A stretch of 16,541 nucleotides of DNA from Candidatus Thorarchaeota archaeon (GTDB lineage Archaea; Asgardarchaeota; Thorarchaeia; Thorarchaeales; Thorarchaeaceae): positions 1 to 16,541 of the forward strand of contig JBHLRS010000030.1 in NCBI GenBank assembly GCA_048882325.1, given 5' to 3'. Each line of letters starts with the position of its first letter. Within the stretch, counting starts at the first letter, position 1. A program made the translations under genes and the position numbers. The notes beneath the pieces are model-generated. The model ran no database searches. It was not told where the DNA came from and saw nothing but the letters and a program-made list of their open reading frames with translations. This document shows, one piece after another, positions 222 to 16,541 of this stretch.

Positions 222-231
222 TGATGTGTAT

Positions 232-909
232 TTAGACGAGGGTGGACTGTTCAGTCGTTTCATCGTCAAGGATTTTTCTGACAGAATCCCAGCTCTTTCG
301 AACTATAGGAGGCAATCTCTTACTATTTCTGACCAATTCTCTGACGAAATCAACTGTCTTTGGGTCTGAAGGATATCCTGAACCAAAGTCTCCGTATTTC
401 TTATGATACTCAGAGATAACACGGTCTCTCTCTACCTTTGCGATAATCGAAGCTGCAGAAACAATCGGGTACTTTGAGTCCGCCTTATGTTCTGAGATAA
501 TCTCTATGCCCTTGGAACCAAGTCCACTGAGACTGGCAATCTTCTCTCCGAATCGGTCTGCCTTCACATCAGCCGCGTCAAGGTACACTTTCTGAGGGTT
601 CAGTTTCTTTACTATCGCTACAAACTCAGCGACCTCTATCTCATTTAGGGTCGTTCTCTTCCGCAGTCTGTCAATATCTGCCGCGGTGACCATTCTGATC
701 TCAATCTTGGTTGCAATCTTCTCGATTTTTTCTTTTAATTTCAAACGCCTAGTATGAGTGAGCGTCTTGGAGTCTTTCGCGCCTATCCTTTTGAGCTCCG
801 AAAGTCTAGCAGAATCAGTCAACACGCCACAGATAACCATAGGCCCTATCATTGGTCCACGACCTGCCTCATCAATCCCTGCAACTCCTTTGAGACCGGT
901 CATATCCAT
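232..909 (-). CDS. rnhB: Ribonuclease HII
   Basis: Motifs GIDEAGRGP, AKDSK, LDAAD, HKAD, VSAASIIAKV, GSGYPSDP. The start is ATG 909 or 903. The ORF-track extension to 1071 runs through the tRNA and is spurious. Confidence 0.96.
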   Translation of the reverse strand: MDMTGLKGVAGIDEAGRGPMIGPMVICGVLTDSARLSELKRIGAKDSKTLTHTRRLKLKEKIEKIATKIEIRMVTAADIDRLRKRTTLNEIEVAEFVAIVKKLNPQKVYLDAADVKADRFGEKIASLSGLGSKGIEIISEHKADSKYPIVSAASIIAKVERDRVISEYHKKYGDFGSGYPSDPKTVDFVRELVRNSKRLPPIVRKSWDSVRKILDDETTEQSTLV

Positions 910-954
910 TAGTGAGTCTTGCTGACTTATTACAGTCACGGACAAGAGAAATAA

Positions 955-1092
955 TGGTGGGGTGGATGGGATTCGAACCCACGATCGACGAGTGTCTTCG
1001 TTGACGACGGTCGTTGTTGACCCCGTCCATTTCAGACGCGAAACGCGCCTAGATCTGGAGCCCGTCGCCATACCGGACTAGGCCACCACCCC
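955..1092 (-). tRNA. tRNA-Trp(CCA) with a 61-nt intron at 37/38 (intron 994-1054); 3' CCA encoded
   Basis: Reverse complement: GGGGTGG TG GCCT AGTCCGGTA TGGC G ACGGG CT CCA G [61-nt intron] A CTCGT CGATC GTGGG TTCGAAT CCCAT CCACCCC A CCA. All stems pair and the mature length is 77 nt. Confidence 0.95.
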
Positions 1093-1122
1093 GGGTGTCG
1101 AGAGGCAAGATTCTGGCACAGG

Positions 1123-1136
1123 TTATGAACTTTTCG
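1123..1136 (-). promoter_or_regulatory. Putative BRE/TATA promoter of tRNA-Trp (and possibly rnhB)
   Basis: The minus strand reads CGAAAAG-TTCATAA about 30 nt upstream of the tRNA 5' end. Confidence 0.55.
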
Positions 1137-1158
1137 TCAATCAAAGCCACACCGCATT

Positions 1159-1166
1159 CTATTAAA
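1159..1166 (+). promoter_or_regulatory. Putative TATA box for elp3 (likely leaderless mRNA)
   Basis: CTATTAAA lies about 25 nt before ATG 1191, with no SD in between. Confidence 0.45.
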
Positions 1167-1190
1167 CTGAAAATCTAGATACCCGGAACT

Positions 1191-2795
1191 ATGGCAGCAC
1201 CTATTGACGACTATCATATCCACAGAGAGATAGTTGAGATGCTGCTTGGTTCTCAAGAGCCTCTTAGTAAACAGGTGATCAATCGCATCAAGAACAAGGT
1301 CTCTGCGAAATACAAGTTGGCAAAAACACCTAGAAATGCAGACATACTACAATCCACAATCCCAGAGGAAGCTGAGATACTACGCCCATTTTTACAGAAG
1401 AGACCTGTACGAACTGTATCTGGAGTGGCTGTAGTCGCGACCATGACAACCCCCCATGAATGCCCTCATGGGAAGTGTGCATACTGTCCTGGGGGCCCAG
1501 ACCTTGGCGTTCCTCAGAGTTACACTGGACATGAACCAGCCACCATGCGAGGGATTCAGAACGAGTTCGATCCATTCAGACAGGTGGAGAGTCGGCTCAC
1601 TCAGCTCTCGACGATTGGACACAGTGTAAACAAGGTCGAACTGATCGTGATGGGTGGGGACTGGTGCTCAAAGCCTCCCGAATATCAGGAGTTCTTCGTC
1701 AAAGGATGCCTAGACGCCATGAACGGGTCAATCAGCACTGATATTGAGCAGGCAAAGAGGACAAACGAGACCGCTGATGTCCGCAATGTCGGTCTTACTT
1801 TTGAAACTCGACCTGACTGGGTGACTCAAGAAAGTATAGACACTATGCTCAGGCTCGGGGCCACGCGAGTAGAGATTGGAGTCCAGACCCTCTCCGATGA
1901 GACCCTGCAGAAGGTGGAGCGCGGCCATGGAGTCATGGAGACCGCTTTGGCTTCCAAGATGCTTCGTGATAGCGGTCTGAAAGTGTGCTATCACATCATG
2001 CCCGGTCTCCCTGGAGCAACTGTTGAAAGCGACCTAGGCACCTTCAAACAACTGTTTTCAGACACAAGGTTCCGTCCTGACATGTTGAAGATCTATCCTA
2101 CTGTAGTTGTGAAGAACACAAAGCTCTACGAGTGGTGGCAGGCTGGCGAATACTCCTCATACACAAACGAACAAATCGTTTCTTTGATTGCAGATGCAGT
2201 CAGTGAGATGCCCGAATATGTACGGATTCAGAGAATGCAGAGGGACATCCCACTCCACCAGATAGAGGCTGGACTTAACAAAGGACACCTCCGTGAGATG
2301 GTCCACCAAAGTATGAGTGCTAAAAACCAGAGAAACCCAACAATTCGATACAGGGAGATTGGCCATTTTCAGATGCGGTCTGAGGAGGAAATTGATCTAG
2401 ACAATATTCAGCTTGTGAAACGTGACTATGAAGCATCTGATGGAACTGAAGTCTTCCTGTCGTTTGAGGACAAAGATTTGGATGTACTCTTTGGCTTTCT
2501 CCGTTTGCGGAGTCCTAGCTCAGATACACATCGGCTTGAACTGACCAGGAAACCTTCTGTCATGATTCGCGAACTACGGGTCTATGGCCCAGTCGTGGAC
2601 ATTGGTAAGAGAGACCGAGATGCTTGGCAACATTTAGGTTTGGGAGAGAAACTGATGTCAGAAGCTGAGGAGATAGGACGCACAGATTTTGATGCCACTC
2701 AGATACTGGTGAATAGCGGTATTGGCGTTAAAGAATACTATCGAGCTCTGGGTTATGTCGATGACGGACCTTATCTAGCAAAGAATCTAGCCTAA
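1191..2795 (+). CDS. elp3: Elp3 tRNA U34 carboxymethyltransferase (radical SAM + KAT domains)
   Basis: RPVRTVSGVAVVA, CPHGKCAYCPGG Fe-S motif, PQSYTGHEPA, ETRPD, LKIYPT, RMQRDIP, IRELRVYG, QHLGLG acetyl-CoA motif, GVKEYYR. Confidence 0.96.
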   Translation: MAAPIDDYHIHREIVEMLLGSQEPLSKQVINRIKNKVSAKYKLAKTPRNADILQSTIPEEAEILRPFLQKRPVRTVSGVAVVATMTTPHECPHGKCAYCPGGPDLGVPQSYTGHEPATMRGIQNEFDPFRQVESRLTQLSTIGHSVNKVELIVMGGDWCSKPPEYQEFFVKGCLDAMNGSISTDIEQAKRTNETADVRNVGLTFETRPDWVTQESIDTMLRLGATRVEIGVQTLSDETLQKVERGHGVMETALASKMLRDSGLKVCYHIMPGLPGATVESDLGTFKQLFSDTRFRPDMLKIYPTVVVKNTKLYEWWQAGEYSSYTNEQIVSLIADAVSEMPEYVRIQRMQRDIPLHQIEAGLNKGHLREMVHQSMSAKNQRNPTIRYREIGHFQMRSEEEIDLDNIQLVKRDYEASDGTEVFLSFEDKDLDVLFGFLRLRSPSSDTHRLELTRKPSVMIRELRVYGPVVDIGKRDRDAWQHLGLGEKLMSEAEEIGRTDFDATQILVNSGIGVKEYYRALGYVDDGPYLAKNLA

Positions 2796-3595
2796 ACAGT
2801 TGAAAACACAAGCCCTCTGAGGAAGTCATCTAGTTCTCTGTTGAAGAACTCGGGATTTTCTAGGTTTGGAACATGTCCCGAACTAGGTACAATCACTTTT
2901 CGAGAATTCTTAATCAACTCAACCATTTTGTCTGCATGTGGAAAAACTGCTTTTCTCTCGTTCTCTCCCAGAATAACAAGAGTTGGAACATTAATGGTAT
3001 CGATTGGTAAGAGCTTGAACGAGTATATGGCATCAGTGATCTTCAAGAGTTCCTCTTTTCTTAATTTCAGCTGCTCCTGTATCAGGTAATTTCTGATATC
3101 CTCACTAATATCGAAGTACTTGAATGACCAATTAGCATACCCCTCATCACTCATTCGTCTAATTGTCCATTTCACCATCCACGAAGGAAACACTGCTTTC
3201 GTTAGTTTATCGGATTTCGTAAGGGCCGCTGCAACAGCTGTATCTGAGAGAACCAGTCCTTTGAGATTTGATTGATATTTCACAGCATACTCTTGAGCTA
3301 CCATTCCTCCAAGAGAGAGACCTATGACCACAGGTTCCTGAAGTCCAAGCCGGTCAATCAACTGATGAAGGTCATCTGCAAACAACTCGCATGTGTATTT
3401 GTCATCAGACCCCTCTGATTTTTGATGTCCTCTAAGGTCATAGGTGATCACATTGTAGGTCCCAGAGAAATGCTCGACCTGGGGTTTCCACATATCATGA
3501 GATGCTCCAGCCCCATGGATGAAGATTAATGGTGGTCCCGCTTCTCCATGCTGTTCATAATATGTTTGGATATTTCCGGTCTGAACAAAGGGCAT
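2792..3595 (-). CDS. Alpha/beta-fold hydrolase (enol-lactonase/esterase-like)
   Basis: FIHGAG oxyanion motif, YDLRGH, GLSLGG nucleophile elbow, GENE acid region, SGHVPNLE catalytic His. Its stop overlaps the elp3 stop (convergent genes). Confidence 0.9.
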   Translation of the reverse strand: MPFVQTGNIQTYYEQHGEAGPPLIFIHGAGASHDMWKPQVEHFSGTYNVITYDLRGHQKSEGSDDKYTCELFADDLHQLIDRLGLQEPVVIGLSLGGMVAQEYAVKYQSNLKGLVLSDTAVAAALTKSDKLTKAVFPSWMVKWTIRRMSDEGYANWSFKYFDISEDIRNYLIQEQLKLRKEELLKITDAIYSFKLLPIDTINVPTLVILGENERKAVFPHADKMVELIKNSRKVIVPSSGHVPNLENPEFFNRELDDFLRGLVFSTV

Positions 3596-3629
3596 GCCGT
3601 TTGATTGTTTGATGACAAGAAAAACGTAC

Positions 3630-4910
3630 CTACCCAGGGGTGCCTTTTCCTGAATAGTCCAGCCACTTTTCCATTATTGACCGAGAATCCTTGCCCAGTT
3701 TCTTCTGCACCAATTCTAGAAACATGTCAGATGTTATTGATTCACTTTTGTTACATATAGCAGCAAAATCACGCATAAGCTTCCTGAACTCTGAAACCCC
3801 AACTGAGTTTGCAACTTCATTCAGCAATAGAAAACCACGGTAATAGAAGGCTGCATAGGACTCATCCTTCTCCCGGACCAAGCTTTTGATTGATGGGAGG
3901 TCTCCCGATTCCTCAAGAAGATTCAGAGTCTTCTTTATGCGTGTTTCCAGAAACTCACCATTCACATAATCATTGACAATATGTATCGAGCAAAATTCAG
4001 CAAGCGCTTCGTCAACCCAATTATCGTACGTCATAGGAGATGCCTTGCAGAACCAGTCATGACATATCTCGTGACACATTGCTTGGAGGACTGAATTTCT
4101 TGCGCTTGATTCGGTAGGATATCCACCTCCCACAACAACCATCCCTGCTCTTGCATAGGCTCCTCCCTGCTGACGAGGTGTAATCACGAATCTAAGTGGT
4201 GCATCGGTCACTCTAGGACCCAACCAGTCTTCCAGCATCCCCCGCAGCTTGTGAATGTGCTCGTCAAACACCTTCTGAGAGCCCACCATCCTCTTTGTTC
4301 CCCAGAAAAAGCTTTCAGGATCGATATGTGCATCCCGGAGCGGCATTCCTACCAGAGTGATGTCATTCACCTGACGATTCTGGTTCCATGTCCAGATAGA
4401 AATTCCGTCAGATGATTCAGAACCACTACTTTCTCCATTAGCATCCCATGTCCAATCAGACGGGCCCTCCAATGTGAAATGAAATGACATGTAGGTCTCC
4501 ATACTCAGCGGTACTGGGTACCAAGCGCTATAACAAGCAAGCTCGACAAAGTCGCTCTTGATGTATCCCATAACTGGCATCTGTGAATCTTTCTTTGGCG
4601 GATGAATCTGCCCACTGTACTCAAAATCAATCACTACTTGATCTTGGTCCGGTTCATGTGGTTCAACCGATGCCTCTACTACCCAAAGGTCTCCATTATA
4701 GAACCGTGGGACTTCCACCTCATCAGTTCGATACAGATTTGCAGATTGCGATTCATCCCCAATGCGCTGCGTCATATTCTTCAATCTCAAACCACGATTA
4801 AGCACGAAGAGGAACTTTGTTTGTTGTTCTGGAATGTTGACTTTACCTTTGACACTCAGCGTCCCCTTTTTGGGTACAATCTTACAGCTGAGGTCATAAT
4901 GAGTAAACAT
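3630..4910 (-). CDS. M1-family-like (gluzincin) zinc aminopeptidase
   Basis: HEICH at 4059-4073, then WVDEALAEF and a downstream YYRG (M1-type Tyr). The start is placed at ATG 4910 behind AGGTGA. The longer track start overlaps the thiolase. Confidence 0.8.
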   Translation of the reverse strand: MFTHYDLSCKIVPKKGTLSVKGKVNIPEQQTKFLFVLNRGLRLKNMTQRIGDESQSANLYRTDEVEVPRFYNGDLWVVEASVEPHEPDQDQVVIDFEYSGQIHPPKKDSQMPVMGYIKSDFVELACYSAWYPVPLSMETYMSFHFTLEGPSDWTWDANGESSGSESSDGISIWTWNQNRQVNDITLVGMPLRDAHIDPESFFWGTKRMVGSQKVFDEHIHKLRGMLEDWLGPRVTDAPLRFVITPRQQGGAYARAGMVVVGGGYPTESSARNSVLQAMCHEICHDWFCKASPMTYDNWVDEALAEFCSIHIVNDYVNGEFLETRIKKTLNLLEESGDLPSIKSLVREKDESYAAFYYRGFLLLNEVANSVGVSEFRKLMRDFAAICNKSESITSDMFLELVQKKLGKDSRSIMEKWLDYSGKGTPG

Positions 4911-5017
4911 CTCAAGGCACATCACCTTTGAGTGCAAACGCACCTTTTGAATAGATTGAATCCGAATATCCTGTTGATAAAAAAGAGATAAAACTGAGAA
5001 AAGCAGAGGTCCTCGAC

Positions 5018-6289
5018 ATGAAAGAAGTATGGTTGGTTGATTACGCACGAACCCCTTTCTCACGATCACGTCCGCAAAAACCGGAGACCGATGCATTTGG
5101 TGAGATTAGGGGTGATGAGCTACTGTCCCGTTTGCTCATGAAATTCTTTGATGGCTCCTTGGCAGATAAGGGGATTGAGAAGAAGGATATCGATGAGATA
5201 ACAATCGGAGTGGCTTCAGGAGTCCTTGAGAACTGGACGTACGGTGGCAAAATTCCTGCCATCTTGTCTGGATTTCCACATGAGGTGCCTTCTATCTTCG
5301 TTGACCGCCAATGTGGTTCTGCTGGTTCTGGTATGCACATTGGTATAATGGAAATCATGACTGGGTTCAGTACGACTGTTCTATCATCTGGTTTTGAGCA
5401 TATGACACGAGTGAGAGGAACAGGTGTAGACCCCAACTTCTCATTCGGTGATGAGAAATCGGAATTCTACAGACCTGGCTTGGATGTACAAACAGTCTTC
5501 AACATGTTGCAGACAGCCCAGAAGCTGTACGAGGAGGAGGTTCCCCAATTCACCAAAGAAGACATGGACAAATTTGGTGTGAGAAGTCACAATCTGACCG
5601 TAAAGAATCAGGAGAGCGGATGGTTCAAAGGTGAGATTATACCAATGGAGGGACACGTACCTGGAAATGTTGATGAGCCTATGCTAGTTGATAGGGACTT
5701 GAGTGCCCGTCCCTCTACTCTTGAGAAGGTTTCAACTCTACCACGAGTATCCACACCCTTCTATATTGAGAAGAATGGTGGAAAGGAGGGCTACATCAAA
5801 CGAGAGGGGACTGATGAGGGAGTGATTACTCCGGGTAACGCATCACCACTGAATGCTGGTGCAACTGCTGCAGTTCTGATGGAGGCTGAGGCGGCAAAGA
5901 AAAGAGGCATTGAGCCAATGGCACGTATTGTGTCCATGGGCTGGGCTGGAGTCGATCCAACAGTCATGGGTCGTGGACCTGTTCCTGCTACAATCAAAGC
6001 TCTCAAACATGCTGGATTAAGTGCTGATGACATTGACTTCTGGGAGATAAACGAAGCCTTCTGCATTGTAGCACTCAACTGCATGGACAAACTGAATATT
6101 CCGGAAGAGAAGGTCAATGTCATGGGTGGATCAACCGCGATTGGACATCCCCTTGGTTCAACAATGATCAGATTGACCGGAACACTTGCAAGAATTCTCA
6201 AAGACAACAAGGCGAAGTATGGTGTTGCTAATGCTTGTGTCGGTGGAGGCCAAGGCGTAGCAACCGTTATTGAGAACCTAGACGCATAA
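5018..6289 (+). CDS. Acetyl-CoA C-acyltransferase (thiolase)
   Basis: YARTPF, DRQCGS (nucleophile Cys), TPGNASPLNAGA, EINEAF, AIGHPLG, ACVGGGQG. There is a GAGG SD-like element upstream. Confidence 0.95.
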   Translation: MKEVWLVDYARTPFSRSRPQKPETDAFGEIRGDELLSRLLMKFFDGSLADKGIEKKDIDEITIGVASGVLENWTYGGKIPAILSGFPHEVPSIFVDRQCGSAGSGMHIGIMEIMTGFSTTVLSSGFEHMTRVRGTGVDPNFSFGDEKSEFYRPGLDVQTVFNMLQTAQKLYEEEVPQFTKEDMDKFGVRSHNLTVKNQESGWFKGEIIPMEGHVPGNVDEPMLVDRDLSARPSTLEKVSTLPRVSTPFYIEKNGGKEGYIKREGTDEGVITPGNASPLNAGATAAVLMEAEAAKKRGIEPMARIVSMGWAGVDPTVMGRGPVPATIKALKHAGLSADDIDFWEINEAFCIVALNCMDKLNIPEEKVNVMGGSTAIGHPLGSTMIRLTGTLARILKDNKAKYGVANACVGGGQGVATVIENLDA

Positions 6290-6321
6290 CCGACGCCAAT
6301 CTGGAAAATAGGAGAACTCGG

Positions 6322-6939
6322 GTGGTAGTTGTGAACATATTCCATATCCTAGCAATCTGTGGAATGCTTAGTCCAATCATCTACACATTCATGTGGATTA
6401 TTGGAGGTGTCTTGCAACCAGAGTACAGTCACATTCGACAGGATGTGAGTTCGCTCGTTGCTACTAATGCACCAAACAAGAAACTGCTTGACAAGTTCAT
6501 TATCTCATCCAGCGTTCTCCTCTTCATATTCTATCTAGGAATGCACTGGGGAATAAACAATGGAGTCGGCTCTATCGTAGGACCTGTCTTATTTGTGATA
6601 AGTGGGCTCCTTGGAGTTCTCGTTGCGTTGTTCTTTCCCCTTGACCCTGGTGGCGAACTAGTGACAACTCGAGGGAAACTCCACCTAGGTCTAATATCCA
6701 TCTCAGGCTTCCTAGCCACGGCTGGGATGGCTACACTATGGTTTAGACTGGAATCAGTTACAGAATGGAGTGCCTTTGCGACATTTTCACTGATTACAGC
6801 TATTGTGTCACTCACACTAGCAATAGCCACATCTGCAGCTACAAAGACCAATTACCTTGGTCTAGTGGAGAGATTCATGGTCAGCACATATCAGATCTAC
6901 TACTTTGTTCTTGCTTTGATGGTGTTTCTAACCAATTAG
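6322..6939 (+). CDS. Multi-pass membrane protein, DUF998-like
   Basis: About five to six hydrophobic segments with PEYSHIRQDVSSL, FPLDP..LH and GLVER motifs typical of DUF998. The GTG start follows AGGAG. Confidence 0.75.
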   Translation: MVVVNIFHILAICGMLSPIIYTFMWIIGGVLQPEYSHIRQDVSSLVATNAPNKKLLDKFIISSSVLLFIFYLGMHWGINNGVGSIVGPVLFVISGLLGVLVALFFPLDPGGELVTTRGKLHLGLISISGFLATAGMATLWFRLESVTEWSAFATFSLITAIVSLTLAIATSAATKTNYLGLVERFMVSTYQIYYFVLALMVFLTN

Positions 6940-6947
6940 AACGGTTT

Positions 6948-7724
6948 CTAGACACTGTATCTTGCAACTCCTGGATGTTCGAGGAACTCCCAATCACCGT
7001 GAACTCCAAACGATCGTGCTCCGAGCTCCAGATGAAGCATAGCGATTCCACAATCGAGTCTCCTTGAAATCCTAAATTCTCCTCTCTTACTGTCAACCGA
7101 AACAGTAATGGATCCCTCATCAATCCCAAATCTCCAAGGCTGTCTATTGGTTGCTGATGGTGCAACCCTAGCAGCCTCCAGAGCTGGTCTAGCCCAATCT
7201 ATGTCATCGACAGCCCCACTCAAAACGAGACTGTCGAGACTCCTTCTTCTGTATGGTTTGGTAGAAACACCAACACGGTCTCTCTCGTTCTTCGAGTATC
7301 CAATGGGTGTGATGCCCAGGACTTGCTCTTTCCCCTTAAGGTCTACGTGTTTTAAGACTGATTCACGTCTATAGAACCCTCCAACCCAACATGTATTCAG
7401 ACCAAGAACCGTAGCCTCTAGAATGACTCCCTCTCCCAAATATCCCATAGTCGCTTGAACATTGGATACACCCATGTCGCCGATGAAAGCAATGTAGAAT
7501 GGAGTTTCTTTCACTTTGTAGAAGAACTCGCCTATTGCTCCCTTGAAAACGTCTTTTCCAGAATCCCTCACAAAGACTGCTCTTGCTCCTGAAAAAGGCC
7601 TGAACTCATTACAGACTTGCTCGATTTTAGCTACCAAATCATCCTCTGGCAACTCTCCTGAATACCGCCTATGTGAGTGTCTAAGAAAAATCGCGTCATA
7701 CCAGGAATCTACAGGAAGCTCCAT
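6948..7724 (-). CDS. Nitroreductase-family flavoprotein (two-domain)
   Basis: AIFLRHSHRRY, GYLGEGVILEATVLGLNTCWVGG, APSATNRQPW, LDCGIAMLHLEL. The start is ATG 7724 or TTG 7739. Confidence 0.88.
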   Translation of the reverse strand: MELPVDSWYDAIFLRHSHRRYSGELPEDDLVAKIEQVCNEFRPFSGARAVFVRDSGKDVFKGAIGEFFYKVKETPFYIAFIGDMGVSNVQATMGYLGEGVILEATVLGLNTCWVGGFYRRESVLKHVDLKGKEQVLGITPIGYSKNERDRVGVSTKPYRRRSLDSLVLSGAVDDIDWARPALEAARVAPSATNRQPWRFGIDEGSITVSVDSKRGEFRISRRLDCGIAMLHLELGARSFGVHGDWEFLEHPGVARYSV

Positions 7725-7809
7725 CAGACATACTCTCAACTAAACAAATATCGAAACCGAATGTACATTAGTGCATCCTATAGCTGCAAAAAAGGAGCGG
7801 CACCTACCA

Positions 7810-8123
7810 CCATCTTGCTTGGCTCATGATGGATCCACAAAACTTTCCTCATCATATCTGGGTGGCACCGCCGAAGACTCTGGCGAGAGCATCTCGCATT
7901 TGGGTGACGGAGTGATGATAAGTGGTAGAACAGCATCAACAGATTTTCCGTGTTCAGATGATGCGTACCAAATCAAAATGGTGGCTCCTACGATGTCTAT
8001 CTTTGTCGAATACACTTTACTCCAACTACACAAGAGCTGTATCCTATGTTTGTCCCAATGTTAGTTGTAGTGGTAATTGTTGCTGCACTAGGTGGAGTAG
8101 TCTTGCTGAAGAAATCGCGCTGA
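7810..8123 (+). pseudogene. Remnant of an SBBP/beta-propeller-repeat surface protein with a C-terminal membrane anchor (5' truncated, frameshifted near 7975)
   Basis: One frame reads LAHDGSTKLSSSYLGGTAEDSGESI..ISGRTASTDFPCSDDAYQ. The -1 frame continues QNGGSYDVYLCRI..MLVVVVIVAALGGVVLLKKSR-TGA(8121-8123). Together these make one SBBP-type repeat plus a TM helix and basic tail. Confidence 0.75.
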
Positions 8124-8133
8124 GAATGAGATT
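8112..8133 (-). repeat. Degenerate direct repeat of the tRNA-Ser 3' end (att-like)
   Basis: aaatcgcgctgagaatgagatt (8112-8133) vs aaatggcgccgaggatgagatt (10347-10368): 19/22 identical, same orientation. Confidence 0.55.
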
Positions 8134-10349
8134 AGGGTAGTATTGCCTTATTTTTTATGAGTAATAATTTTGTAATCAATCAATTCTTATAGAAGTTCAT
8201 CTGACCTATAATGGGGACCATCGTATCATTGAGGACTGCCACCATCTCGTGGTTCTTAGGACCGTATAATGAAGGGGAAGAAATATGGAAAAAGGAGGCG
8301 CTAGGCCGTCACTAGATCTATTTTCGTATAGTATCAAGGGAAAAGACTCCAACGGGTCATACAGTGGCACGATTGAACTGTTGGGAAACGAGAATGATAA
8401 CACCTCATTAACAGTTTCTCGAACAATTAGATATGAGAAAGGAAGAACCTTGCGATTCTCAGGAGAGGGAAATATCAGAGGACGAAGAGTAGATCTTCGT
8501 CTTAGGCAGGTCCATAAACCAGTTGATTGGAAAACGGATGAAAAGAAAAGAGTGGTGTCTAAGAGGAAGAAGATTCCTTTGACACACATCATCGGCGGAT
8601 TCTCAAAGGAAAAAGATTCGTGTATAGCTTTCTGCAGAATAATGGGTAAATCAGATATTAAGAGAGGGGAGGAGAAATGGGAACTAGAGAAGAAACACAG
8701 TCTTCTCGAAAGATATACTCAGGAGTCAAAGAGCATCAAAGGCGAATGGACACCGATACGCATTCCAATGAAGGAACCGGGAATTGTGAAACTTAGTATT
8801 CCAAAGGCAATAGGACCTACTGGAATGTTTCTCAAAGAAGGTGTTGAACCAGAACTCGAGAATATTGATGAGATGTGTATGTTGTATCCAAGGAACTTTC
8901 AATCCCAAAGGGTTCTTGGACAACCAACTCTTTACAATGAAACTGATGGTCCTATTTGGATTAAACAATTCTCTAAGAAAGAAATTGAATCTGACTGGAT
9001 ATTCTGGTATAGGGACGACGAAAAAGAGTCAAATTGGGAGTTTTCAGCTGAAATTCGGATTCTATCTCTACCCGATTGGATTCTATCTCTTATTTGCAAT
9101 CCGTATGTGAAGATTGACGTATGGCCTAGTGTGACTAGTACTGGAGGTGTAGTCTACATCACTGTGACTGCCAGAGCATGGGCTGGACTAGATATGTTCT
9201 GGTGGTATGGCTGTACTGGTATACCCGCGTGGGATCGTGCACATATTTGGGCAGGTAATGGAGCCTACTCTGCTAGTCGTACATGGGTAATCGGTGTTGA
9301 TACGCCTGGTACCTACACATTTGGTGCAAATTGTCGAGATGTTCTCTATCCCGAGCTAGGAGTTCCTCATCAAGCTTCTGAAGGTTGTGGACTCGATTTC
9401 GACTCCGTAGAAGTGCATCCTATGTTTCGTAGGGTCTACAAGGTGGGTTTTGTCCTTCTAGCACCAGAAGGTTCAGATGTCACCTCTAGCGAGTTTCAGA
9501 CATATCTAGACAGACTTGATGGAATCAAGAACGCTCTTAACTACCAATTTCACACGTCTACTTTGGAATATGGTGTTGTTGATGTTGATTATCCTGTTGT
9601 TGTACTAACACCTCCAGGACCTATCTATGATATCTATGATAGTTATACTCAACTGTATGCATTTATCCGGGAAACGATAGCCAACAACTTTTACTCTGAC
9701 CATCCTGATGCCTTTGATTTCTTAGCGATTTACGAAGCGTATCCTGACAAAACCATTGGGTCCAGACACATCACTGTTAATACGAGGGTTGCTGGATTTG
9801 GTATATATCCCTATGACCTATCATATGACTGGGGGTCATCTGGACGTTTGCGAGGAGTTGGATTAGTAGCAGACGTCAGAACACTTCCAGATTCATACGA
9901 TTTCATGGAAAGCAAAATGCACTTACTGCTCCATGAAGTCTTTGGACATCAATGGGGAGTTTTTGCTGACCGAATAGGAACTTCCGGAGCTCATTTTGAA
10001 ACAGGTATTGAATCACCAACATTCACAGTGATGTATGGTCGTCCCTGGCGTAGAATTGATGAAACTCATTTCACTACAGAGAATATCCAAGATCCTGAAA
10101 CAGGCCATTTCAAAGTGACATTCCATCCTTGGATTCTCTATGTTGCTGGTATGTTGGCAAGATCCGAAATTCCAGAAGAGCTCATGGATGTTAGCCCCGA
10201 CACACCACCAGCTCATAGGTATGATTTGGTGGACACGACAGGAACATATGAGATTGTGACACTTCAAAGTGTAATAGACGATTCTGGTGATAGATACGAT
10301 GTCTAGATGCATCATTGGTGTTTCCATTTGGAAAACAGAAACAAGAAAA
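8134..10349. mobile_element. Putative tRNA-Ser-integrated genomic islet remnant (no integrase)
   Basis: Bounded by the intact tRNA-Ser 3' end and a degenerate copy of it. It has an AT-rich left edge and carries one orphan-like gene. Confidence 0.4.
8285..10306 (+). CDS. Hypothetical 673-aa multidomain protein with a C-terminal putative zinc metallopeptidase domain
   Basis: Long uninterrupted ORF. LLLHEVFGHQWG (9932-9949), a further His (GAH) and TVMYG (possible Met-turn). The central segment is beta-rich and Ig-like (PGTYTFGANCRD). Confidence 0.7.
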   Translation: MEKGGARPSLDLFSYSIKGKDSNGSYSGTIELLGNENDNTSLTVSRTIRYEKGRTLRFSGEGNIRGRRVDLRLRQVHKPVDWKTDEKKRVVSKRKKIPLTHIIGGFSKEKDSCIAFCRIMGKSDIKRGEEKWELEKKHSLLERYTQESKSIKGEWTPIRIPMKEPGIVKLSIPKAIGPTGMFLKEGVEPELENIDEMCMLYPRNFQSQRVLGQPTLYNETDGPIWIKQFSKKEIESDWIFWYRDDEKESNWEFSAEIRILSLPDWILSLICNPYVKIDVWPSVTSTGGVVYITVTARAWAGLDMFWWYGCTGIPAWDRAHIWAGNGAYSASRTWVIGVDTPGTYTFGANCRDVLYPELGVPHQASEGCGLDFDSVEVHPMFRRVYKVGFVLLAPEGSDVTSSEFQTYLDRLDGIKNALNYQFHTSTLEYGVVDVDYPVVVLTPPGPIYDIYDSYTQLYAFIRETIANNFYSDHPDAFDFLAIYEAYPDKTIGSRHITVNTRVAGFGIYPYDLSYDWGSSGRLRGVGLVADVRTLPDSYDFMESKMHLLLHEVFGHQWGVFADRIGTSGAHFETGIESPTFTVMYGRPWRRIDETHFTTENIQDPETGHFKVTFHPWILYVAGMLARSEIPEELMDVSPDTPPAHRYDLVDTTGTYEIVTLQSVIDDSGDRYDV

Positions 10350-10470
10350 TGGCGCCGAGGATGAGATTTGAACTCATGCGTGACAAAGCACACCGGTTGA
10401 CTTGGCATTCAGCTTCCGAAGAAACCGGTTTTCAAGACCGGCGCCGTAATCCGGGCTTGGCTACCTCGGC
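10350..10470 (-). tRNA. tRNA-Ser(UGA) with a 32-nt intron at 37/38 (intron 10399-10430); 3' CCA encoded
   Basis: Reverse complement: GCCGAGG TA GCC AAGCCCGGATTAC GGC G CCGGT CT TGA A [32-nt intron] A ACCGG TGTGCTTTGTCACGC ATGAG TTCAAAT CTCAT CCTCGGC G CCA. It has a long variable arm and a G73 discriminator. Confidence 0.95.
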
Positions 10471-10496
10471 TTAGACATGCCACCGTTGGAAATGCC

Positions 10497-10503
10497 TTTT
10501 AAG
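10497..10503. promoter_or_regulatory. Putative TATA element between divergent tRNA-Ser and archease
   Basis: TTTTAAG on the plus strand and CTTAAAA on the minus strand, about 27 nt from the tRNA 5' end and about 40 nt from the archease start. Confidence 0.5.
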
Positions 10504-10541
10504 CTTCTTGTCGTGGTTGGCCGAGAAGGAGAACTAATCCA

Positions 10542-10973
10542 TTGGAGCGCGGTTTCAACTTTCATGATCATACGGCAGACATTACAATAGAGTGCTGGGC
10601 TCCTGATTTGATAGATGCATTTGAACAGGCTGCCCTTGCCACATTTGAGGTCATTCTAGACACATCCACAGTTGAGCCAAAGGAAACTACTGAGATATCA
10701 GTTACAGGAACCGATCTTGAAGAACTTCTAGTAGAGTGGATTGGAAAACTTATTGCATTGATAGATATCAATGGCCAATTTTACTCTGAGTTTCATGTGG
10801 ACCACCTCGAAGCAACTCTGGATGGCTATGTTCTCGAAGCTAGGGCTCTAGGGGAGCCAATCAATCATGAGAAGCATGACACACGAACTGAAGTCAAGGC
10901 CATGACTTATGCTGACATGAAAATACTTCAAGAGCCCAATCGCACCACTATATGGTTCACACTTGACCTTTAG
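10542..10973 (+). CDS. Archease (RtcB tRNA-ligase cofactor)
   Basis: N-terminal DHTAD, DLEELLVEW, EVKAMTY and C-terminal LDL. The TTG start follows AGGAG. Confidence 0.93.
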   Translation: MERGFNFHDHTADITIECWAPDLIDAFEQAALATFEVILDTSTVEPKETTEISVTGTDLEELLVEWIGKLIALIDINGQFYSEFHVDHLEATLDGYVLEARALGEPINHEKHDTRTEVKAMTYADMKILQEPNRTTIWFTLDL

Positions 10974-10985
10974 GAGGATACAGAA

Positions 10986-11843
10986 CTGACTCTGAGAGTT
11001 GCTATTCCTGATACCACATTGACGGACTGCACAGATCTTCGTGAAAAGACTGTGAAAGTTGGATCCTTAGCTCGAGCTTTTGCTGTATTTCGGGTTGAGT
11101 CTGTGTACATCTATGATACAGGGATGCTAAGCGCCGGAAAGAAAAGGGATGCAGACCTACTCAGAAAGATTCTCAGATACATGGATACTCCACAATACCT
11201 ACGTAAACGGAGTTTTCCCAAGTCTCAAGCGCTCAAGTTCGCAGGTCTTCTTCCACCTCTTAGAACCAAGAGTCATCCACTAGAAAGCACACTTGATGAC
11301 ATTCAAGAGGGAACAGTGAGGTGGGGTCTACAGGTCCGACCTGGAAAAATTGATCTTGGGCTTGAGAAGTTGGTCAACTATCCGAAGGCGGTGAGTGAAC
11401 GCGATCCTACCCTTTTCAGATTAACAAAGACTAAGCCACAAATCAGCCTGGAGATAATCGACAGAGATGATGTCAGCGACTACTGGGGCTTTGACATCGA
11501 GCGTGTCACTAACCTAGCTGAGTTCCTTGAGGAGTCTGAAGAAACAACTCGAATTGGATTCTCTAGAAAGGCGCCATTGTTCCACCAACTTGAGAGTGAT
11601 TTGAAATCAACTGTCGCGAGCACACAGTCAGTTCTCGCAGTCTTTGGTGGTCCCGGTCATGGCATCCTCGAATTCTTTGGCAAGGATCGTGAGACCGTGA
11701 AGTCCCACATTGATTTCTGGGTGAACACTATTCCAGACCAGGGGACTGAAACTGTTCGACTTGAAGAGGCTTTGTTTGTGAGTCTCGGTCTACTGAACGC
11801 ATCATTGGGTAGATTGATTACAAAACCCGGCTATCATGAATGA
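10986..11843 (+). CDS. SPOUT-family RNA methyltransferase (COG2106 / SPOUT1-like); probable CTG start
   Basis: VAIPD, ARAFAVFRV, TPQYLRK, AGLLPPL, VFGGP, NTIPDQGTETVRLEEAL. The conserved LRVAIPD lies upstream of the track's TTG (11019). CTG 10986 is 8 nt after GGAGG. Confidence 0.9.
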   Translation: MTLRVAIPDTTLTDCTDLREKTVKVGSLARAFAVFRVESVYIYDTGMLSAGKKRDADLLRKILRYMDTPQYLRKRSFPKSQALKFAGLLPPLRTKSHPLESTLDDIQEGTVRWGLQVRPGKIDLGLEKLVNYPKAVSERDPTLFRLTKTKPQISLEIIDRDDVSDYWGFDIERVTNLAEFLEESEETTRIGFSRKAPLFHQLESDLKSTVASTQSVLAVFGGPGHGILEFFGKDRETVKSHIDFWVNTIPDQGTETVRLEEALFVSLGLLNASLGRLITKPGYHE

Positions 11844-11864
11844 CTAGTGCATGCATGCGTGACC

Positions 11865-11870
11865 TTTATA
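11865..11870 (+). promoter_or_regulatory. Putative TATA box for the glycyl radical enzyme gene
   Basis: TTTATA lies about 28 nt before ATG 11899, with no SD. Confidence 0.5.
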
Positions 11871-11898
11871 GAAGAAACTTCGTAGACGACAAATAACG

Positions 11899-14265
11899 AT
11901 GCAGTCCGAGAGAGTGAAACGCCTTCGAAAACAGAGTGTGGGTACGAAACCCTACATATCTACTGAGAGGGCTGAGCTTCTGACAGATTTCTATCAGAGT
12001 GGTGGTGCAGACCTAGTTTCCACACCTGTAGCTCGGGCATTGACATTCAAACACATTTTGGAGAATAAGACAATCTGCATCAATGATGGAGAGCTTATTG
12101 TTGGTGAAAGAGGCCCAGCTCCGCGAGCTGCGCCAACGTATCCTGAATTGTGTTGCCATACTCTTGAGGACCTCGAGATTGCCAACTCACGTGAACGAAC
12201 TCCTTTTCTGTCTACTGAGGACACGAGAAACACATACCGTGATGAGATCATTCCATTCTGGACGGGTCGGACCATGCGTGAACGCGTGTTTGAATCCATG
12301 TCTGATGAGTGGATGAAAGCATTCAATGCTGGTGTCTTTACAGAGTTCATGGAGCAACGTGCTCCCGGACATGCAATCCTTGATGATAAGATATACCAGC
12401 GAGGTCTCTTGGACTTCATTCAGGACATCCAAAATCATTTGTCATCACTCGACTACTTCAATGATTCAGAAGCCTATAACAAGGAGCAAGAGTTGAAGGC
12501 AATGGAGATAGCTGCGAACGCAGTGATTATCTTTGCTGAGCGACATGCTGAGAAGGCCCGAGAGCTTGCTGAGGAAGAGTCTGATGAAGTCCGAAAGAAG
12601 GAACTCCTACGCATTGCTGAGGTTTGTCAACATGTTCCAGCACATGCACCCCGTAACTTCTGGGAGGCATTACAATCCTACTGGTTTATTCACTTGGGAG
12701 TGATTATCGAGCTGAATGTCTGGGACAGTTTCAATCCAGGAAGACTGGATCTGAACCTCCATCCTTTCTATGAACGGGAGGTTGGCACAGGAACCCTCAC
12801 ACGAGATTTTGCGAAAGAACTCCTTCAATGCTTCTGGGTGAAGTTCAACAATCAACCTGCACCTCTGAAGGTGTCCATTACTGAACAACAGAGCGGAACA
12901 TACCAAGACTTTGCACTGATTAACACCGGAGGACTAACGGTTGACGGGAAGGATGGTGTTAATGAGCTGTCATATCTCATTCTAGAGGTCTGCAATGAGA
13001 TGCGACTCATTCAACCAAGTGTCTGCATTCAGCTGAGTACAGAGAACCCGGGGAGATTCCTTGAGAGTGCAGTTGATGTTGTCAAGGAGGGATTTGGACA
13101 GCCATCCATGTTCAACACCGATGTGATAATCAAAGAGTTTGTTCGTGCTGGAAAATCCATCGAAGATGCACGTAAAGGCGGGCCAAGTGGATGTGTAACA
13201 ATCAGTGCATTTGGGAAAGAGAGCTGTATTCTTACAGGTTACTGCAACTGGCCCAAGATATTAGAAATCACACTTCACAATGGCTCTGACCCTCGAACAG
13301 GTGAGAAAGTGGGTATTAAGACCGGTGATCCAACTGGGTTCAAATCGTTTGATGAACTGTTCTCTGCCTACAAGAAACAGCTTGAGTATTTTATTGATTT
13401 GAAAATCAAGGGCAATAATATCATTGAGCGTCTATACGCAGAACACATGCCTGCGCCTTTCATGTCCCTCTTGTTCGATGACTGTATTGCACGAGGGAAG
13501 GACTATCATGATGGAGGTCCCAGATACAACTCCACTTACATCCAGGGAGTAGGGATGGGAACAATCACAGACTCACTATCAGCTATCAAGTTCCATGTAT
13601 TCGAGAAGAAACGATTCACCATGAAGGAGCTACTTGATGGACTCGTTACAGACTTTGAGGAAAATGAGGTCATGAGAATGACCCTTCTCAACAGGACTCC
13701 TAAATATGGCAATGATGACGATTTTGTTGATGCACTTGCTAGGGATGTGTTCAACACCTACTTCGATTTGATTGATGGTCGTCCGAACACGAAGGGCGGT
13801 GAGTATCGAGTCAATCTTCTCCCAACCACGGTCCATGTCTATTTTGGGCAGGTGACTGGTGCCACCCCGGACGGTCGAAATGCTGGTGCGCCGTTATCAG
13901 ATGGGATATCTCCCAGCCATGGTGCTGACACGAAAGGTCCTACAGCAGTCATCAAGTCGGTGGCCAAGATTGACCACTGGAAGACTGGAGGAACTCTTCT
14001 AAACCAGAAGTTCATGCCTGAGGTGCTAGCTGATGAAGAAGGAAGAATGAAGCTTGGAAACCTCGTGCGGACCTATTTCAAACTGGGCGGTCATCATATT
14101 CAGTTCAACGTGGTTCACGCTGATACTCTCAAATCTGCTCAGAAGAGTCCTGAACTCTATCAAGATCTGATAGTCAGGGTTGCTGGCTACAGTGACTACT
14201 TCATCAACATCGGCAAGGACCTGCAGAACGAGATCATTGCCCGCACTGAACAGAAACGATTCTGA
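11899..14265 (+). CDS. Glycyl radical enzyme of the trans-4-hydroxy-L-proline dehydratase (HypD)-like clade; variant active site
   Basis: RVAGYS glycyl-radical loop (Gly763) and SGCV thiyl Cys432. HypD-clade signatures PTYPELCCHT, FTEFMEQRAPGH, LNVWD, KFNNQPAP, TYQDFA, LTGY, LPTT. Length is 788 aa. Confidence 0.9.
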   Translation: MQSERVKRLRKQSVGTKPYISTERAELLTDFYQSGGADLVSTPVARALTFKHILENKTICINDGELIVGERGPAPRAAPTYPELCCHTLEDLEIANSRERTPFLSTEDTRNTYRDEIIPFWTGRTMRERVFESMSDEWMKAFNAGVFTEFMEQRAPGHAILDDKIYQRGLLDFIQDIQNHLSSLDYFNDSEAYNKEQELKAMEIAANAVIIFAERHAEKARELAEEESDEVRKKELLRIAEVCQHVPAHAPRNFWEALQSYWFIHLGVIIELNVWDSFNPGRLDLNLHPFYEREVGTGTLTRDFAKELLQCFWVKFNNQPAPLKVSITEQQSGTYQDFALINTGGLTVDGKDGVNELSYLILEVCNEMRLIQPSVCIQLSTENPGRFLESAVDVVKEGFGQPSMFNTDVIIKEFVRAGKSIEDARKGGPSGCVTISAFGKESCILTGYCNWPKILEITLHNGSDPRTGEKVGIKTGDPTGFKSFDELFSAYKKQLEYFIDLKIKGNNIIERLYAEHMPAPFMSLLFDDCIARGKDYHDGGPRYNSTYIQGVGMGTITDSLSAIKFHVFEKKRFTMKELLDGLVTDFEENEVMRMTLLNRTPKYGNDDDFVDALARDVFNTYFDLIDGRPNTKGGEYRVNLLPTTVHVYFGQVTGATPDGRNAGAPLSDGISPSHGADTKGPTAVIKSVAKIDHWKTGGTLLNQKFMPEVLADEEGRMKLGNLVRTYFKLGGHHIQFNVVHADTLKSAQKSPELYQDLIVRVAGYSDYFINIGKDLQNEIIARTEQKRF

Positions 14266-14433
14266 GTCAGTCTGGTCAAGTCGCTCGTAGACCAATCTAT
14301 TCATTTACTACTCGTGAAGTCCCAAGTCCCTTTTCAGGACACACTCGCTCAAATATAGTCATCACAACGCTCAGTAACACAGGCCTGATTCCACTAGAAA
14401 CATCTTATAGACCACTTTTGGTCAGTGGGCAAA

Positions 14434-14441
14434 TTTTAAAA
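14434..14441 (+). promoter_or_regulatory. Putative TATA box of the rpl3 operon
   Basis: TTTTAAAA predicts a transcription start near 14463-14466. Confidence 0.55.
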
Positions 14442-14463
14442 ACACACTCCGTCACGGCTCGCG

Positions 14464-14552
14464 ATGTAGTAAGAATAGCCCGAGTGATGTGACTATTCGA
14501 ATTTGTGATGATTTTGATATCACTTTGGCTGCAAAACTACAGGTGAAAATTA
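14464..14552 (+). promoter_or_regulatory. Candidate structured 5' leader of the rpl3-rpl4-rpl23 operon, including the SD GGTGA (14542-14546)
   Basis: Nested helices TGTAGT/ACTACA, GAATAG/CTATTC, GTGAT/ATCAC and TTTG/CAAA. Confidence 0.45.
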
Positions 14553-15560
14553 ATGGCGCATAGAAAGAAGAATGCTCCAAGAAGAGGTAGTCTTGCTTAC
14601 CTACCCAGAGGAAGGGCATCCAAGTTTCTGCCAAGAATCAAGAACTGGCCCTCCTATGATGGTGATTCTGCAAAGTTACTTGGTTTTGTTGGCTACAAGG
14701 CTGGAATGACCCATGCAGTCATGACGATTGAGAATCCTAATAGCCCTTTCAAAGGGCAAGAAACAGTGGTTCCTGTCACAGTCATTGACACACCACCAAT
14801 CAGACCCTTCTCAATCCGTGGTTATGAGGCAACACCCTATGGGCTGAAACTGGTCTCTGAGGTCCTCGCAGAAACCCTCACTGAGGATCTACGGAAAGCA
14901 ATGACATTTCCAAAGGACTATGATCACAATGCCAAGATGAAAGAGTTTGAGGAAAAACTAGACTCGCTTGCAGAGATTCGGATGTTAATCCACACTCAGC
15001 CACGACTTGCAGGAGTGCCAAAGAAGAAGCCCGATATAACAGAGTACAAAGTAGGCGCTCCGAGCGTCAGAGAGGCATTTGAGTACGCTCAAAGTATCCT
15101 TGGCACTGATGTCAGAGTTGCAGATATACTCGATGAAGGAATTCTAGTCGATAGCATTGCTGTGACTAAGGGTCATGGTTTTCAGGGTCCTGTTCGTCGT
15201 TGGGGTATTCGGATACTTCAACACAAGTCACGAAAGACAAAACGTGGAGTGGGTTGCATTGGTCCATGGACTCCGACCAATATCAGGTACTCTGTACCAC
15301 GCCCAGGACAGACCGGTTTCCACACTCGCACCAGTTTCAACAATAAGGTTCTGAAGATGGGCGAGCGTGGTGAGGAAATTACACCTTCCGGAGGTTTTGT
15401 GAACTACGGCGTAATTCGCGGCGACTACATAATGCTTCATGGATCTATCCCTGGTACAGTAAAGAGACCAGTACGATTCAGATTCGCTATTCGTCCCAAG
15501 AAGGGACACGTGGATGCTCCTACTCAGGTGAGCTACATCAGCACAGCATCGAAGCAATAG
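14553..15560 (+). CDS. rpl3: 50S ribosomal protein L3 (uL3)
   Basis: PRRGSLAYLPRGRA, GYKAGMTH, TKGHGFQGPVRRWG, PRPGQTGFHTRT, ITPSGGFVNYG, GSIPG. Confidence 0.98.
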   Translation: MAHRKKNAPRRGSLAYLPRGRASKFLPRIKNWPSYDGDSAKLLGFVGYKAGMTHAVMTIENPNSPFKGQETVVPVTVIDTPPIRPFSIRGYEATPYGLKLVSEVLAETLTEDLRKAMTFPKDYDHNAKMKEFEEKLDSLAEIRMLIHTQPRLAGVPKKKPDITEYKVGAPSVREAFEYAQSILGTDVRVADILDEGILVDSIAVTKGHGFQGPVRRWGIRILQHKSRKTKRGVGCIGPWTPTNIRYSVPRPGQTGFHTRTSFNNKVLKMGERGEEITPSGGFVNYGVIRGDYIMLHGSIPGTVKRPVRFRFAIRPKKGHVDAPTQVSYISTASKQ

Positions 15561-15573
15561 GAGGTTGATAGTT

Positions 15574-16365
15574 TTGGCAAGCGTAAGGAAATACAATTTG
15601 AAGGGCAAGCCTACCAAGGACTCTGTTTCGCTGCCCTCACAGTTTGAAACTCCCTATCGTCCAGATGTGATTAAGAGAGCAGTATTGGCAGTTCAATCAC
15701 GACGATATCAACCCCATGGTGTTGATGAGCTGGCTGGCAAACGGAACACCGCTCAAAGCTGGCAGACCGGACATGGCAGGTCAAGAATGCCGCGTGTGAA
15801 GGGAAGCGGCACTGGGGCAGCTAACAAAGCTGCTTTTGCTCCGGGCACAGTTGGCGGTCGCGTCGCACATCCTCCAGAGGCAAGAAAGGTCCTCGTTGAG
15901 CGCATAAACACTAAGGAGAACCGTTTGGCGATTCGTTCAGCCATTGCAGCCTCTGCAAACCCTGATTTTGTCAAGGCCAGAGGGCACAAGATAGACAATG
16001 TTCCTCAGATACCTTTGGTCGTAAGTGACAAGTTGGAATCACTCTCCACTACAAAGGATGCATTTGAAGCATTGATCTTCCTAGGTCTGGGTGATGACCT
16101 AGATAGAGCCAGAGATGGTCGTAGTATTAGAGCTGGGAAGGGCAAGATGCGCGGTCGTAAGATGAAGGCTCCCAAGTCACTACTCATTGTTGTAGGTGAA
16201 GATTCGGGTATCTCAAAAGCTGCACGAAATCTTCCTGGGGTTGACATCACTGAGGTCCATGGGCTAAATGCTGAACTCCTTGCTCCCGGAACACATCCGG
16301 GACGCCTTGTGGTCTGGACAAAGTCCGCCATTGACAGGCTCGAAAAGGAGAAACTGTTTGTTTGA
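15574..16365 (+). CDS. rpl4: 50S ribosomal protein L4 (uL4)
   Basis: RPDVIKRAV, SWQTGHGRSRMPR, APGTVGGRVAHPP, RAGKGKMRGR, LAPGTHPGRL. The start is placed at TTG 15574, 9 nt after GGAGG. Confidence 0.98.
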   Translation: MASVRKYNLKGKPTKDSVSLPSQFETPYRPDVIKRAVLAVQSRRYQPHGVDELAGKRNTAQSWQTGHGRSRMPRVKGSGTGAANKAAFAPGTVGGRVAHPPEARKVLVERINTKENRLAIRSAIAASANPDFVKARGHKIDNVPQIPLVVSDKLESLSTTKDAFEALIFLGLGDDLDRARDGRSIRAGKGKMRGRKMKAPKSLLIVVGEDSGISKAARNLPGVDITEVHGLNAELLAPGTHPGRLVVWTKSAIDRLEKEKLFV

Positions 16366-16374
16366 GGTGAGCGA

Positions 16375-16541
16375 ATGAGAGATCCAAATGAAATCATTAT
16401 TCGCCCTGTCGTGACAGAAGCCAGTCTTGAGGCAGTGGATGAAGAGAACAAGCTCATCTTCTATGTAGTTCGAACTGCAAACAAGAACACGATCAAGTGG
16501 GCTGTTGAAACTCTCTATGAGGTTGTAGTCGAGAAAGTCAA
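16375..16541 (+). CDS. rpl23: 50S ribosomal protein L23 (uL23); 3' truncated by the window edge
   Basis: The ATG follows GAGGTGA. It translates as MRDPNEIIIRPVVTEASLEAVDEENKLIFYVVRTANKNTIKWAVETLYEVVVEKV, in the canonical position after rpl4. Confidence 0.95.
   Translation, partial: MRDPNEIIIRPVVTEASLEAVDEENKLIFYVVRTANKNTIKWAVETLYEVVVEKV

Follow-up and report, generated by a model that had tools for sequence, protein, structure and literature searches.

The window analysed here is a stretch of 16,541 nucleotides from a Candidatus Thorarchaeota archaeon (contig JBHLRS010000030.1, positions 1 to 16,541, forward strand), and the gene under study is an open reading frame (ORF) at 11899-14265 on the plus strand. 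It is open throughout and encodes a glycyl radical enzyme (GRE) of 788 amino acids, designated P0001, in which the Cys loop reads Cys-Val-Thr instead of the Cys-x-Glu (CxE) motif of GRE 1,2-eliminases and isomerases. Pfam searches identified both domains of the superfamily, the PFL-like barrel (PF02901, E 3e-233) and the C-terminal glycine radical domain with its RVxG motif (PF01228, E 6e-38). [quoted passage not shown] Alignment with the copy of that protein taken from the C. difficile genome (L080) was collinear at 57% identity, with a single one-residue indel at residue 38 of P0001; HypD numbering equals P0001 numbering plus two. An AlphaFold2 model, computed with a 100-sequence alignment as input, had a mean predicted local distance difference test score (pLDDT) of 94.9. 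It superimposed on 6vxc with a template modelling (TM) score of 0.98 and a root-mean-square deviation of 1.0 Å, placing Thr434 at the backbone position of Glu436, and it also matched GRE structures in fold comparison. Public records of close relatives bear the name trans-4-hydroxy-L-proline dehydratase, Candidatus Thorarchaeota. Upstream of the gene, a candidate archaeal TATA box read from the sequence (TTTATA, 11865-11870, plus strand) ends 28 nucleotides 5' of the ATG, which suggests that the GRE may be transcribed from a promoter of its own, into an mRNA with a short leader or none.

The codons TGT GTA ACA at 13192-13200 (plus strand) specify C432-V433-T434, which sits within GGPSGCVTISAFGKESCILTGYC of P0001; the Cys loop as a whole reads GGPSG-C432-V-T434-ISAFGKESCILTGYC. 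The catalytic cysteine, C432, aligns with C434 of HypD and was invariant in all groups compared, and threonine occupies the place of Glu436. The C. difficile enzyme (PDB 6vxc and 6vxe), which served as the HypD reference, shows what that glutamate does: it hydrogen-bonds to the leaving group of Hyp, the 4-hydroxyl, at 2.7 Å and to His160 at 2.5 Å, and an E436Q variant gave no detectable product (PMC7077986). The substrate amine is contacted by Asp278 and, via a water molecule, by Asp339, while Phe340 stacks on the ring; Asp278 is also the proposed acid/base for both the amine and the hydroxyl (PMC7077986). Ser334, Tyr450 and Thr645 hold the carboxylate of Hyp, and Arg156 and Lys326 lie close by. 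Mutagenesis has shown that His160, Asp278, Ser334, Asp339, Phe340, Tyr450 and Thr645 are each essential or important (PMC7077986).

All seven of these residues are present in P0001, as are the equivalents of F152, R156, W277, K326, C434 and G765. In its own coordinates, the partner of Glu436 is retained in His158-Ala159 (12370-12375, plus strand), where the alanine corresponds to Thr161 of HypD, and Trp275-Asp276 (12721-12726, plus strand) corresponds to W277-D278. A short helix and the strand that follows it are remodelled (E329-Q-Q331-S332 ... Q336-D337-F338; 12883-12912, plus strand): in HypD terms L331E, E333Q and T338Q are changed and S334, D339 and F340 are kept. The pLDDT of the model falls to about 80 over the E329-Q-Q-S332 segment. 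The Gly loop is intact and reads RVAG763Y, with the codon of Gly763, the glycyl radical site, at 14185-14187 (plus strand).

GRE matches at E <= 1e-100 were found in 298 of the 400 Asgard genomes surveyed, a count that takes in GRE paralogs, and HypD-like matches of at least 58% identity occurred in at least about 145 Asgard genomes among the matches listed. Among the HypD-like sequences read, two types could be told apart. Proteins of the Thor type are 68-100% identical to P0001, read CVT-I/V-S/G and come from the family of the query and two other Asgard families. Those of the canonical Asgard type are 58-63% identical to P0001, read CVE-[T/A/V/S/I]-G...Y...GYF and come from six or more other families; two closed genomes (4.36 and 6.04 Mb) are among their sources. 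The bacterial HypDs fetched, that of C. difficile included, carried Glu in 78 of 78 cases (77 CVE and one CIE). Residue conservation was then compared over three sets of sequences, from the Thor type (146), the canonical Asgard type (11) and bacteria (78). F152, R156, H160, W277, D278, K326, S334, D339, F340, C434, T645 and G765 were each present in every Thor-type sequence (G763 of P0001 thus in 146/146), and Y450 was kept in 145 of the 146.

These comparisons bear directly on an earlier sequence-only reading of the window, which had reported the Cys-Val-Thr loop, the intact Gly763 loop and the retention of F152, H160, W277, D278, S334, D339, F340, Y450 and T645; ORF, codons and alignment bear out each of these points. 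That reading had also listed changes near the lost glutamate. Among them ETG>TIS, EAY>ESC and LKES>EQQS are real and mostly clade-wide; ANIN>ALIN is seen in the sequence but is not specific to the clade. Its proposal that the amine pocket had been remodelled does not survive, as the contacts of Glu436 are with the leaving hydroxyl and with His160, and the residues of the amine side, D278, D339 and F340, are fully conserved. Residue conservation likewise offers no support for the N-substituted or N-methylated hydroxyproline that had been suggested as substrate.

The threonine is a property of the whole clade. CVT was found in 115 of the 118 close clusters (drawn at 90% identity; 73-100% identical to P0001) and CVE in the other 3, and CVT was found in 35 of 38 Thor-type loci screened in species-representative genomes (32 of 35 in one set plus five further loci, two being counted in both sets). 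Across species the threonine is written with four codons (ACA 18, ACC 6, ACG 5 and ACT 4), and a change from GAR to ACN requires at least two base substitutions. The ratio of nonsynonymous to synonymous substitution rates (dN/dS) was 0.034 for the closest pair, synonymous sites being saturated in all other pairs. An approximate maximum-likelihood tree (FastTree), the one tree on which the phylogeny rests, had the topology (bacteria, (canonical Asgard, Thor-type)) with outgroup GREs apart, and the Asgard HypDs formed a monophyletic group within the HypD clade with support of 1.0. On the strength of clade-wide CVT, tree, codon diversity and dN/dS, the Thr state is judged to be old and under selection that maintains it. 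The sequence-only reading had already considered error or decay unlikely and had asked whether CVT proteins would form a conserved clade; the clusters and the tree show that they do. The idea that the motif is an artefact of sequencing or assembly, or a recent mutation confined to one metagenome-assembled genome, is accordingly refuted: we found no point in its favor, and the motif recurs in many independent assemblies. The conservation and the dN/dS also make a decaying or inactive protein unlikely.

The loss of Glu436 did not occur alone. Approximately 30 positions are fixed differently in the Thor-type clade and in the canonical enzymes. Several lie beside catalytic residues at sites that are otherwise invariant in canonical sequences, namely T161A (by His160), E333Q (by Ser334), T338Q (by Asp339) and G438S; Thr161 is Ala in every Thor-type sequence. 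Further clade-wide changes are L331E, Y445C, F/M451C, L/I453W, N378C and M616A. Taken together, L331E and E333Q look like the shift of an acidic residue along the short helix that bears Ser334. Judged from the alignment, the rewired part is the hydroxyl or leaving-group side of the active site and its second shell.

Two lineages inside the clade carry glutamate. A CVE-IS subclade lies within the genus of the query itself (genomes G340 and G362; clusters P0073, P0084 and P0089), uses GAG or GAA codons and is nested in the Thor-type clade with supports of 0.95-0.999. The second lineage belongs to another genus (genome G319, locus L041). Both retain all other Thor-type substitutions, and on the tree Glu would thus have been regained twice in an otherwise Thor-type protein. 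This nesting argues that both states work in the Thor-type scaffold. HypD position 411 is Met in both Glu-bearing lineages and Val, Ile or Thr in the Thr-bearing ones, and it was the only position that tracked Glu in the Thor-type background. Position 690 was rejected as a coupled site, as there are Thr-bearing sequences that have Ala690 and Glu-bearing ones that have Val690. The association of Met411 with Glu, which rests on two lineages, hints weakly at two discrete states, one with Glu and one with Thr, and not at neutral drift.

Around the GRE, the window carries an archease gene (10542-10973) and a SPOUT-type RNA methyltransferase gene (11019-11843) upstream, and rpl3 (14553-15560) and rpl4 (15565-16365) downstream, all on the plus strand and assigned by Pfam; the first two are conserved synteny partners in relatives. 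The order archease, SPOUT methyltransferase, GRE, rpl3, rpl4 is conserved in the family of the query. An ORF for 673 amino acids, with no Pfam family, lies 5' of the archease gene (8285-10306, plus strand). In genomes of the same family that lack a Thor-type GRE (L149-L152), the SPOUT gene lies approximately 125 bp from rpl3, which indicates that the GRE is an insertion among translation genes, or else that those relatives have lost it from there. No activase gene was found in the 16.5-kb window, nor at the loci of relatives in which the GRE is linked to rpl3; P0001 lacks the adjacent cognate activase of the usual HypD operon.

Other loci differ. Among 13 canonical Asgard loci sampled, 12 have a short activase gene (261-283 amino acids) directly upstream of the GRE, the remaining one (L057) having none nearby, and permease genes lie near several of these canonical genes. 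The 261-residue activase of one canonical locus (L058), the only one compared, is without the two-cluster ferredoxin-like insert that is present in the activases of L044 and of the query genome. In a second Asgard family, the CVT GRE is preceded by a major facilitator superfamily (MFS) transporter and then a protein of approximately 313 amino acids (L042:2222-3160, L043:2636-3577 and L046:2985-3926). The latter appears to be membrane-embedded and matched no Pfam or NCBIfam model; it was considered as a divergent activase and ruled out, having no activase similarity and the look of a membrane protein. In a third family (L044), the CVT gene has an adjacent radical S-adenosylmethionine (SAM) activase and a dehydrogenase that resembles Ord of the ornithine pathway (NF040740 at 329 bits, below the cut-off of 400). 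As this CVT gene still stands beside its activase, the change from Glu to Thr would have preceded the loss of the neighboring activase, and that order supports the Thr form as a genuine radical enzyme.

In the genome of the query (G000; 93% complete) there are three GREs and a single activase. This activase, a radical SAM protein and the one TIGR02494 match above cut-off (G000:C1:15728-16594), is on another contig than the Thor-type gene and adjoins a different GRE; presumably it must activate the Thor-type enzyme as well. That second GRE (contig 1, approximately 13311-16684 together with the activase directly after it; L011:1030-4403) has 799 amino acids and the motifs GCLEN and RVTGY, and it falls below every NCBIfam equivalog cut-off. 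The third GRE (contig 11; L010:1087-3399, minus strand) has 770 amino acids and the motifs GCVEP and RVAGY, and it exceeds the cut-off of the PFL2/glycerol-dehydratase subfamily model only. Its neighbors, a gene resembling 2-keto-3-deoxygluconate (KDG) kinase and an aminotransferase gene, suggest that its substrate may be related to sugar acids.

At least one activase was found in 73 of 86 genomes of the family, and usually exactly one. A few genomes with the gene had no activase above cut-off, among them two with full-length GREs (G368, a single 2.6-Mb scaffold, and G337); G337 has a fragment only, at the end of a contig. Gaps in the assemblies probably account for this, less certainly so in G368. 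These genomes, with the rpl3-linked loci that lack an adjacent activase and the inactivity of HypD E436Q (PMC7077986), are what could be cited for a protein that remains competent to carry a radical but is no longer an efficient enzyme, whether a slow or regulatory relic or an enzyme left unactivated after activase loss. We consider this very improbable. The closest pair shows strong purifying selection by its dN/dS, Gly763, Cys432 and the binding residues are conserved over several genera in three families, most genomes keep one activase, and those without one either are incomplete or have a fragment where a contig ends.

HypD-like genes never exceeded one per genome in the 86 family genomes: 52 were of the Thor type and one was canonical (a CVE-TG gene in G335, found with its activase), and no genome held both types. 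This distribution looks like replacement of one form by the other and not like a paralog with a second job. The fate of the product was also considered. The gene for pyrroline-5-carboxylate (P5C) reductase, proC, was above cut-off in none of 40 genomes of the Thor family (the query and 39 members) and in none of five Asgard genomes with canonical HypD (G135, G138, G004, G149 and G067). Being absent alike from both kinds of genome, it was dropped as a discriminator of the Thr form; P5C formed by any Asgard HypD would have to bypass the classical route to proline. The Pro_racemase family gave a marginal match only (27.9 bits).

We read P0001 as a derived but functional thorarchaeial ortholog of HypD, a GRE 1,2-eliminase, and give about an even chance to its still dehydrating Hyp-type substrates. 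Orthology, fold, conserved residues, the clade-wide threonine, selection and gene context are observed; on this reading, they would combine with a mechanism as follows. The only GRE activase of the genome, whose gene lies on a different contig, would install the radical on Gly763 in trans. The Cys432 thiyl radical would then take a C5 hydrogen atom of a 4-substituted proline ring held by the unchanged carboxylate clamp (Ser332, Tyr448 and Thr643) and the aromatic box (Phe150, Trp275 and Phe338). Asp276 would deprotonate the amine and protonate the leaving group, and the 4-hydroxyl would be positioned by His158 and Thr434, possibly via a water molecule, in place of the His-Glu pair. In this way the proton-handling network on the leaving-group side would have been rewired throughout the lineage, with the change of Glu436 to Thr accompanied by T161A, E333Q, L331E, T338Q and G438S. 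The likeliest substrate would be trans-4-hydroxy-L-proline or a very close analogue, with P5C as the predicted product. Retained dehydration of Hyp is favored by the conservation of all substrate contacts, by the interchange of Glu and Thr within the clade and by the presence of one gene per genome.

Several observations weigh against retained HypD activity. Glu436 is invariant in 89 of 89 canonical sequences (78 bacterial and 11 Asgard), its replacement by Gln abolished detectable product in the reference enzyme, and CxE is retained by all characterised GRE C-O, C-N and C-S eliminases and isomerases (2026 review, PMC13450708). The stem of the Thor-type clade is long (0.20 substitutions per site) and carries the approximately 30 fixed changes, of which several fall beside catalytic residues at sites that are invariant elsewhere; this is a pattern typical of changed function. 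Thor-type loci have lost the dedicated activase of canonical loci and their neighbors of amino-acid-permease type. The hint from Met411 points the same way. Even for the canonical Asgard enzyme physiological support is wanting: for the cultured Asgard strain MK-D1, a carrier of the canonical form, L-hydroxyproline was proposed from the genome as a substrate, and the strain did not grow on it at 1 mM (PMC11316595).

An alternative is neofunctionalization, with an enzyme that keeps the HypD scaffold with its C5-H abstraction and its binding of a proline-like carboxylate but acts on a different substrate or leaving group, with which a carboxylate at position 436 is unneeded or harmful. Candidates would be another hydroxyproline isomer, an O-substituted (e.g. 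glycosylated) hydroxyproline of algal or plant cell-wall proteins, or a related cyclic amino acid. Consistent with such a change are the loss of a residue that is essential in HypD, the long stem with fixed changes such as T161A, E333Q, T338Q and G438S, the large-to-small replacements Y445C, F451C, M616A and N378C, and the possible coupling of the Glu/Thr state to position 411. The altered context fits as well, with no activase alongside and, in one family, an organic-anion-type MFS transporter and a membrane protein beside the gene, as does the frequency of non-CxE loops in uncharacterised GREs (see below), which indicates that the fold tolerates other chemistries. However, the direct contacts to Hyp are unchanged, both aspartates on the amine side and all three ligands of the carboxylate among them; the two returns of Glu brought no other active-site changes; the two types never occur together in a family genome; and no neighboring gene indicates a specific alternative substrate. 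We therefore regard a new substrate or leaving group as doubtful, though it deserves serious consideration, and return to a derived Hyp dehydratase as the preferred reading. The new chemistry that the sequence-only reading had put forward is somewhat weakened by the twice-regained Glu, the lack of co-occurrence and the unchanged substrate contacts.

A bolder claim, which we advance tentatively, is that the Thor-type protein may be the first GRE of the eliminase lineage to work without the CxE carboxylate, either by a distinct acid/base mechanism that uses His and Asp only or on a new proline-derived Asgard substrate, and that the Thr and Glu forms may be two selectable functional states of one scaffold. 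The case matters because the glutamate of CxE is regarded as diagnostic for the eliminase and isomerase class as a whole and HypD is among the best understood GRE eliminases, and here a natural clade spread over three families drops the glutamate and keeps every other contact. The Thr clade and its natural Glu-restored sisters form a ready-made pair for testing the role of this residue. Annotation is also affected: the NCBI equivalog model and public records call these proteins trans-4-hydroxy-L-proline dehydratase despite the missing residue, which is required in the reference enzyme. As HypD-like genes are widespread in Asgard archaea, their function is relevant to models of Asgard amino-acid metabolism. 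HypDs from archaea grouped as a separate clade in a 2018 survey, in which the motif went unmentioned (PMC6219649), and no function has been demonstrated for an archaeal PFL-like GRE (PMC13450708). Our search of the literature on HypD of Asgard archaea and Thorarchaeota found no study of the Thr variant.

Compared with known systems, P0001 is closest to HypD of C. difficile, with which it shares the fold, the Gly and Cys radical sites, the carboxylate clamp (S334, Y450 and T645), the amine contacts (D278 and D339), the aromatic box (F152, W277 and F340), His160, R156 and K326. It differs in the absence of Glu436, the altered T161, E333, T338 and G438, the lack of an adjacent activase, the SPOUT-rpl3 locus and the archaeal host. 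The canonical Asgard HypDs are the sister clade, have the same length and equally lack proC in the genomes checked, but keep CVE-[T/A/V/S/I]-G, Y445 and F451. Other GREs that act on hydroxyproline isomers, the N-methyl-cis-4-hydroxyproline dehydratases HpyG and HpzG (8id1 and 8iof) and the Hyp C-N lyase HplG (7vua), have the same overall fold but are far more distant (31-35% identity and 411-492 bits, versus 1071 bits for HypD), and all carry CxE. Among the nearest full-length GRE cluster representatives at 50% identity (P0121-P0270), 36 of 133 have a residue other than Glu, four of these being CxT. In these the place of Glu is taken by His, Ser, Gln, Thr, Arg, Asp or another residue, and they make up a sizeable reservoir of Cys-loop variants that await study. 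These non-CxE proteins of the PFL2/glycerol-dehydratase family are uncharacterised, are 33-42% identical to P0001 and lie outside the HypD orthogroup. Since non-CxE loops are this common in uncharacterised GREs, a missing Glu is not in itself what makes the Thor type novel; the novelty is that Glu was lost within an orthogroup that is well understood, while the remainder of the site stayed intact.

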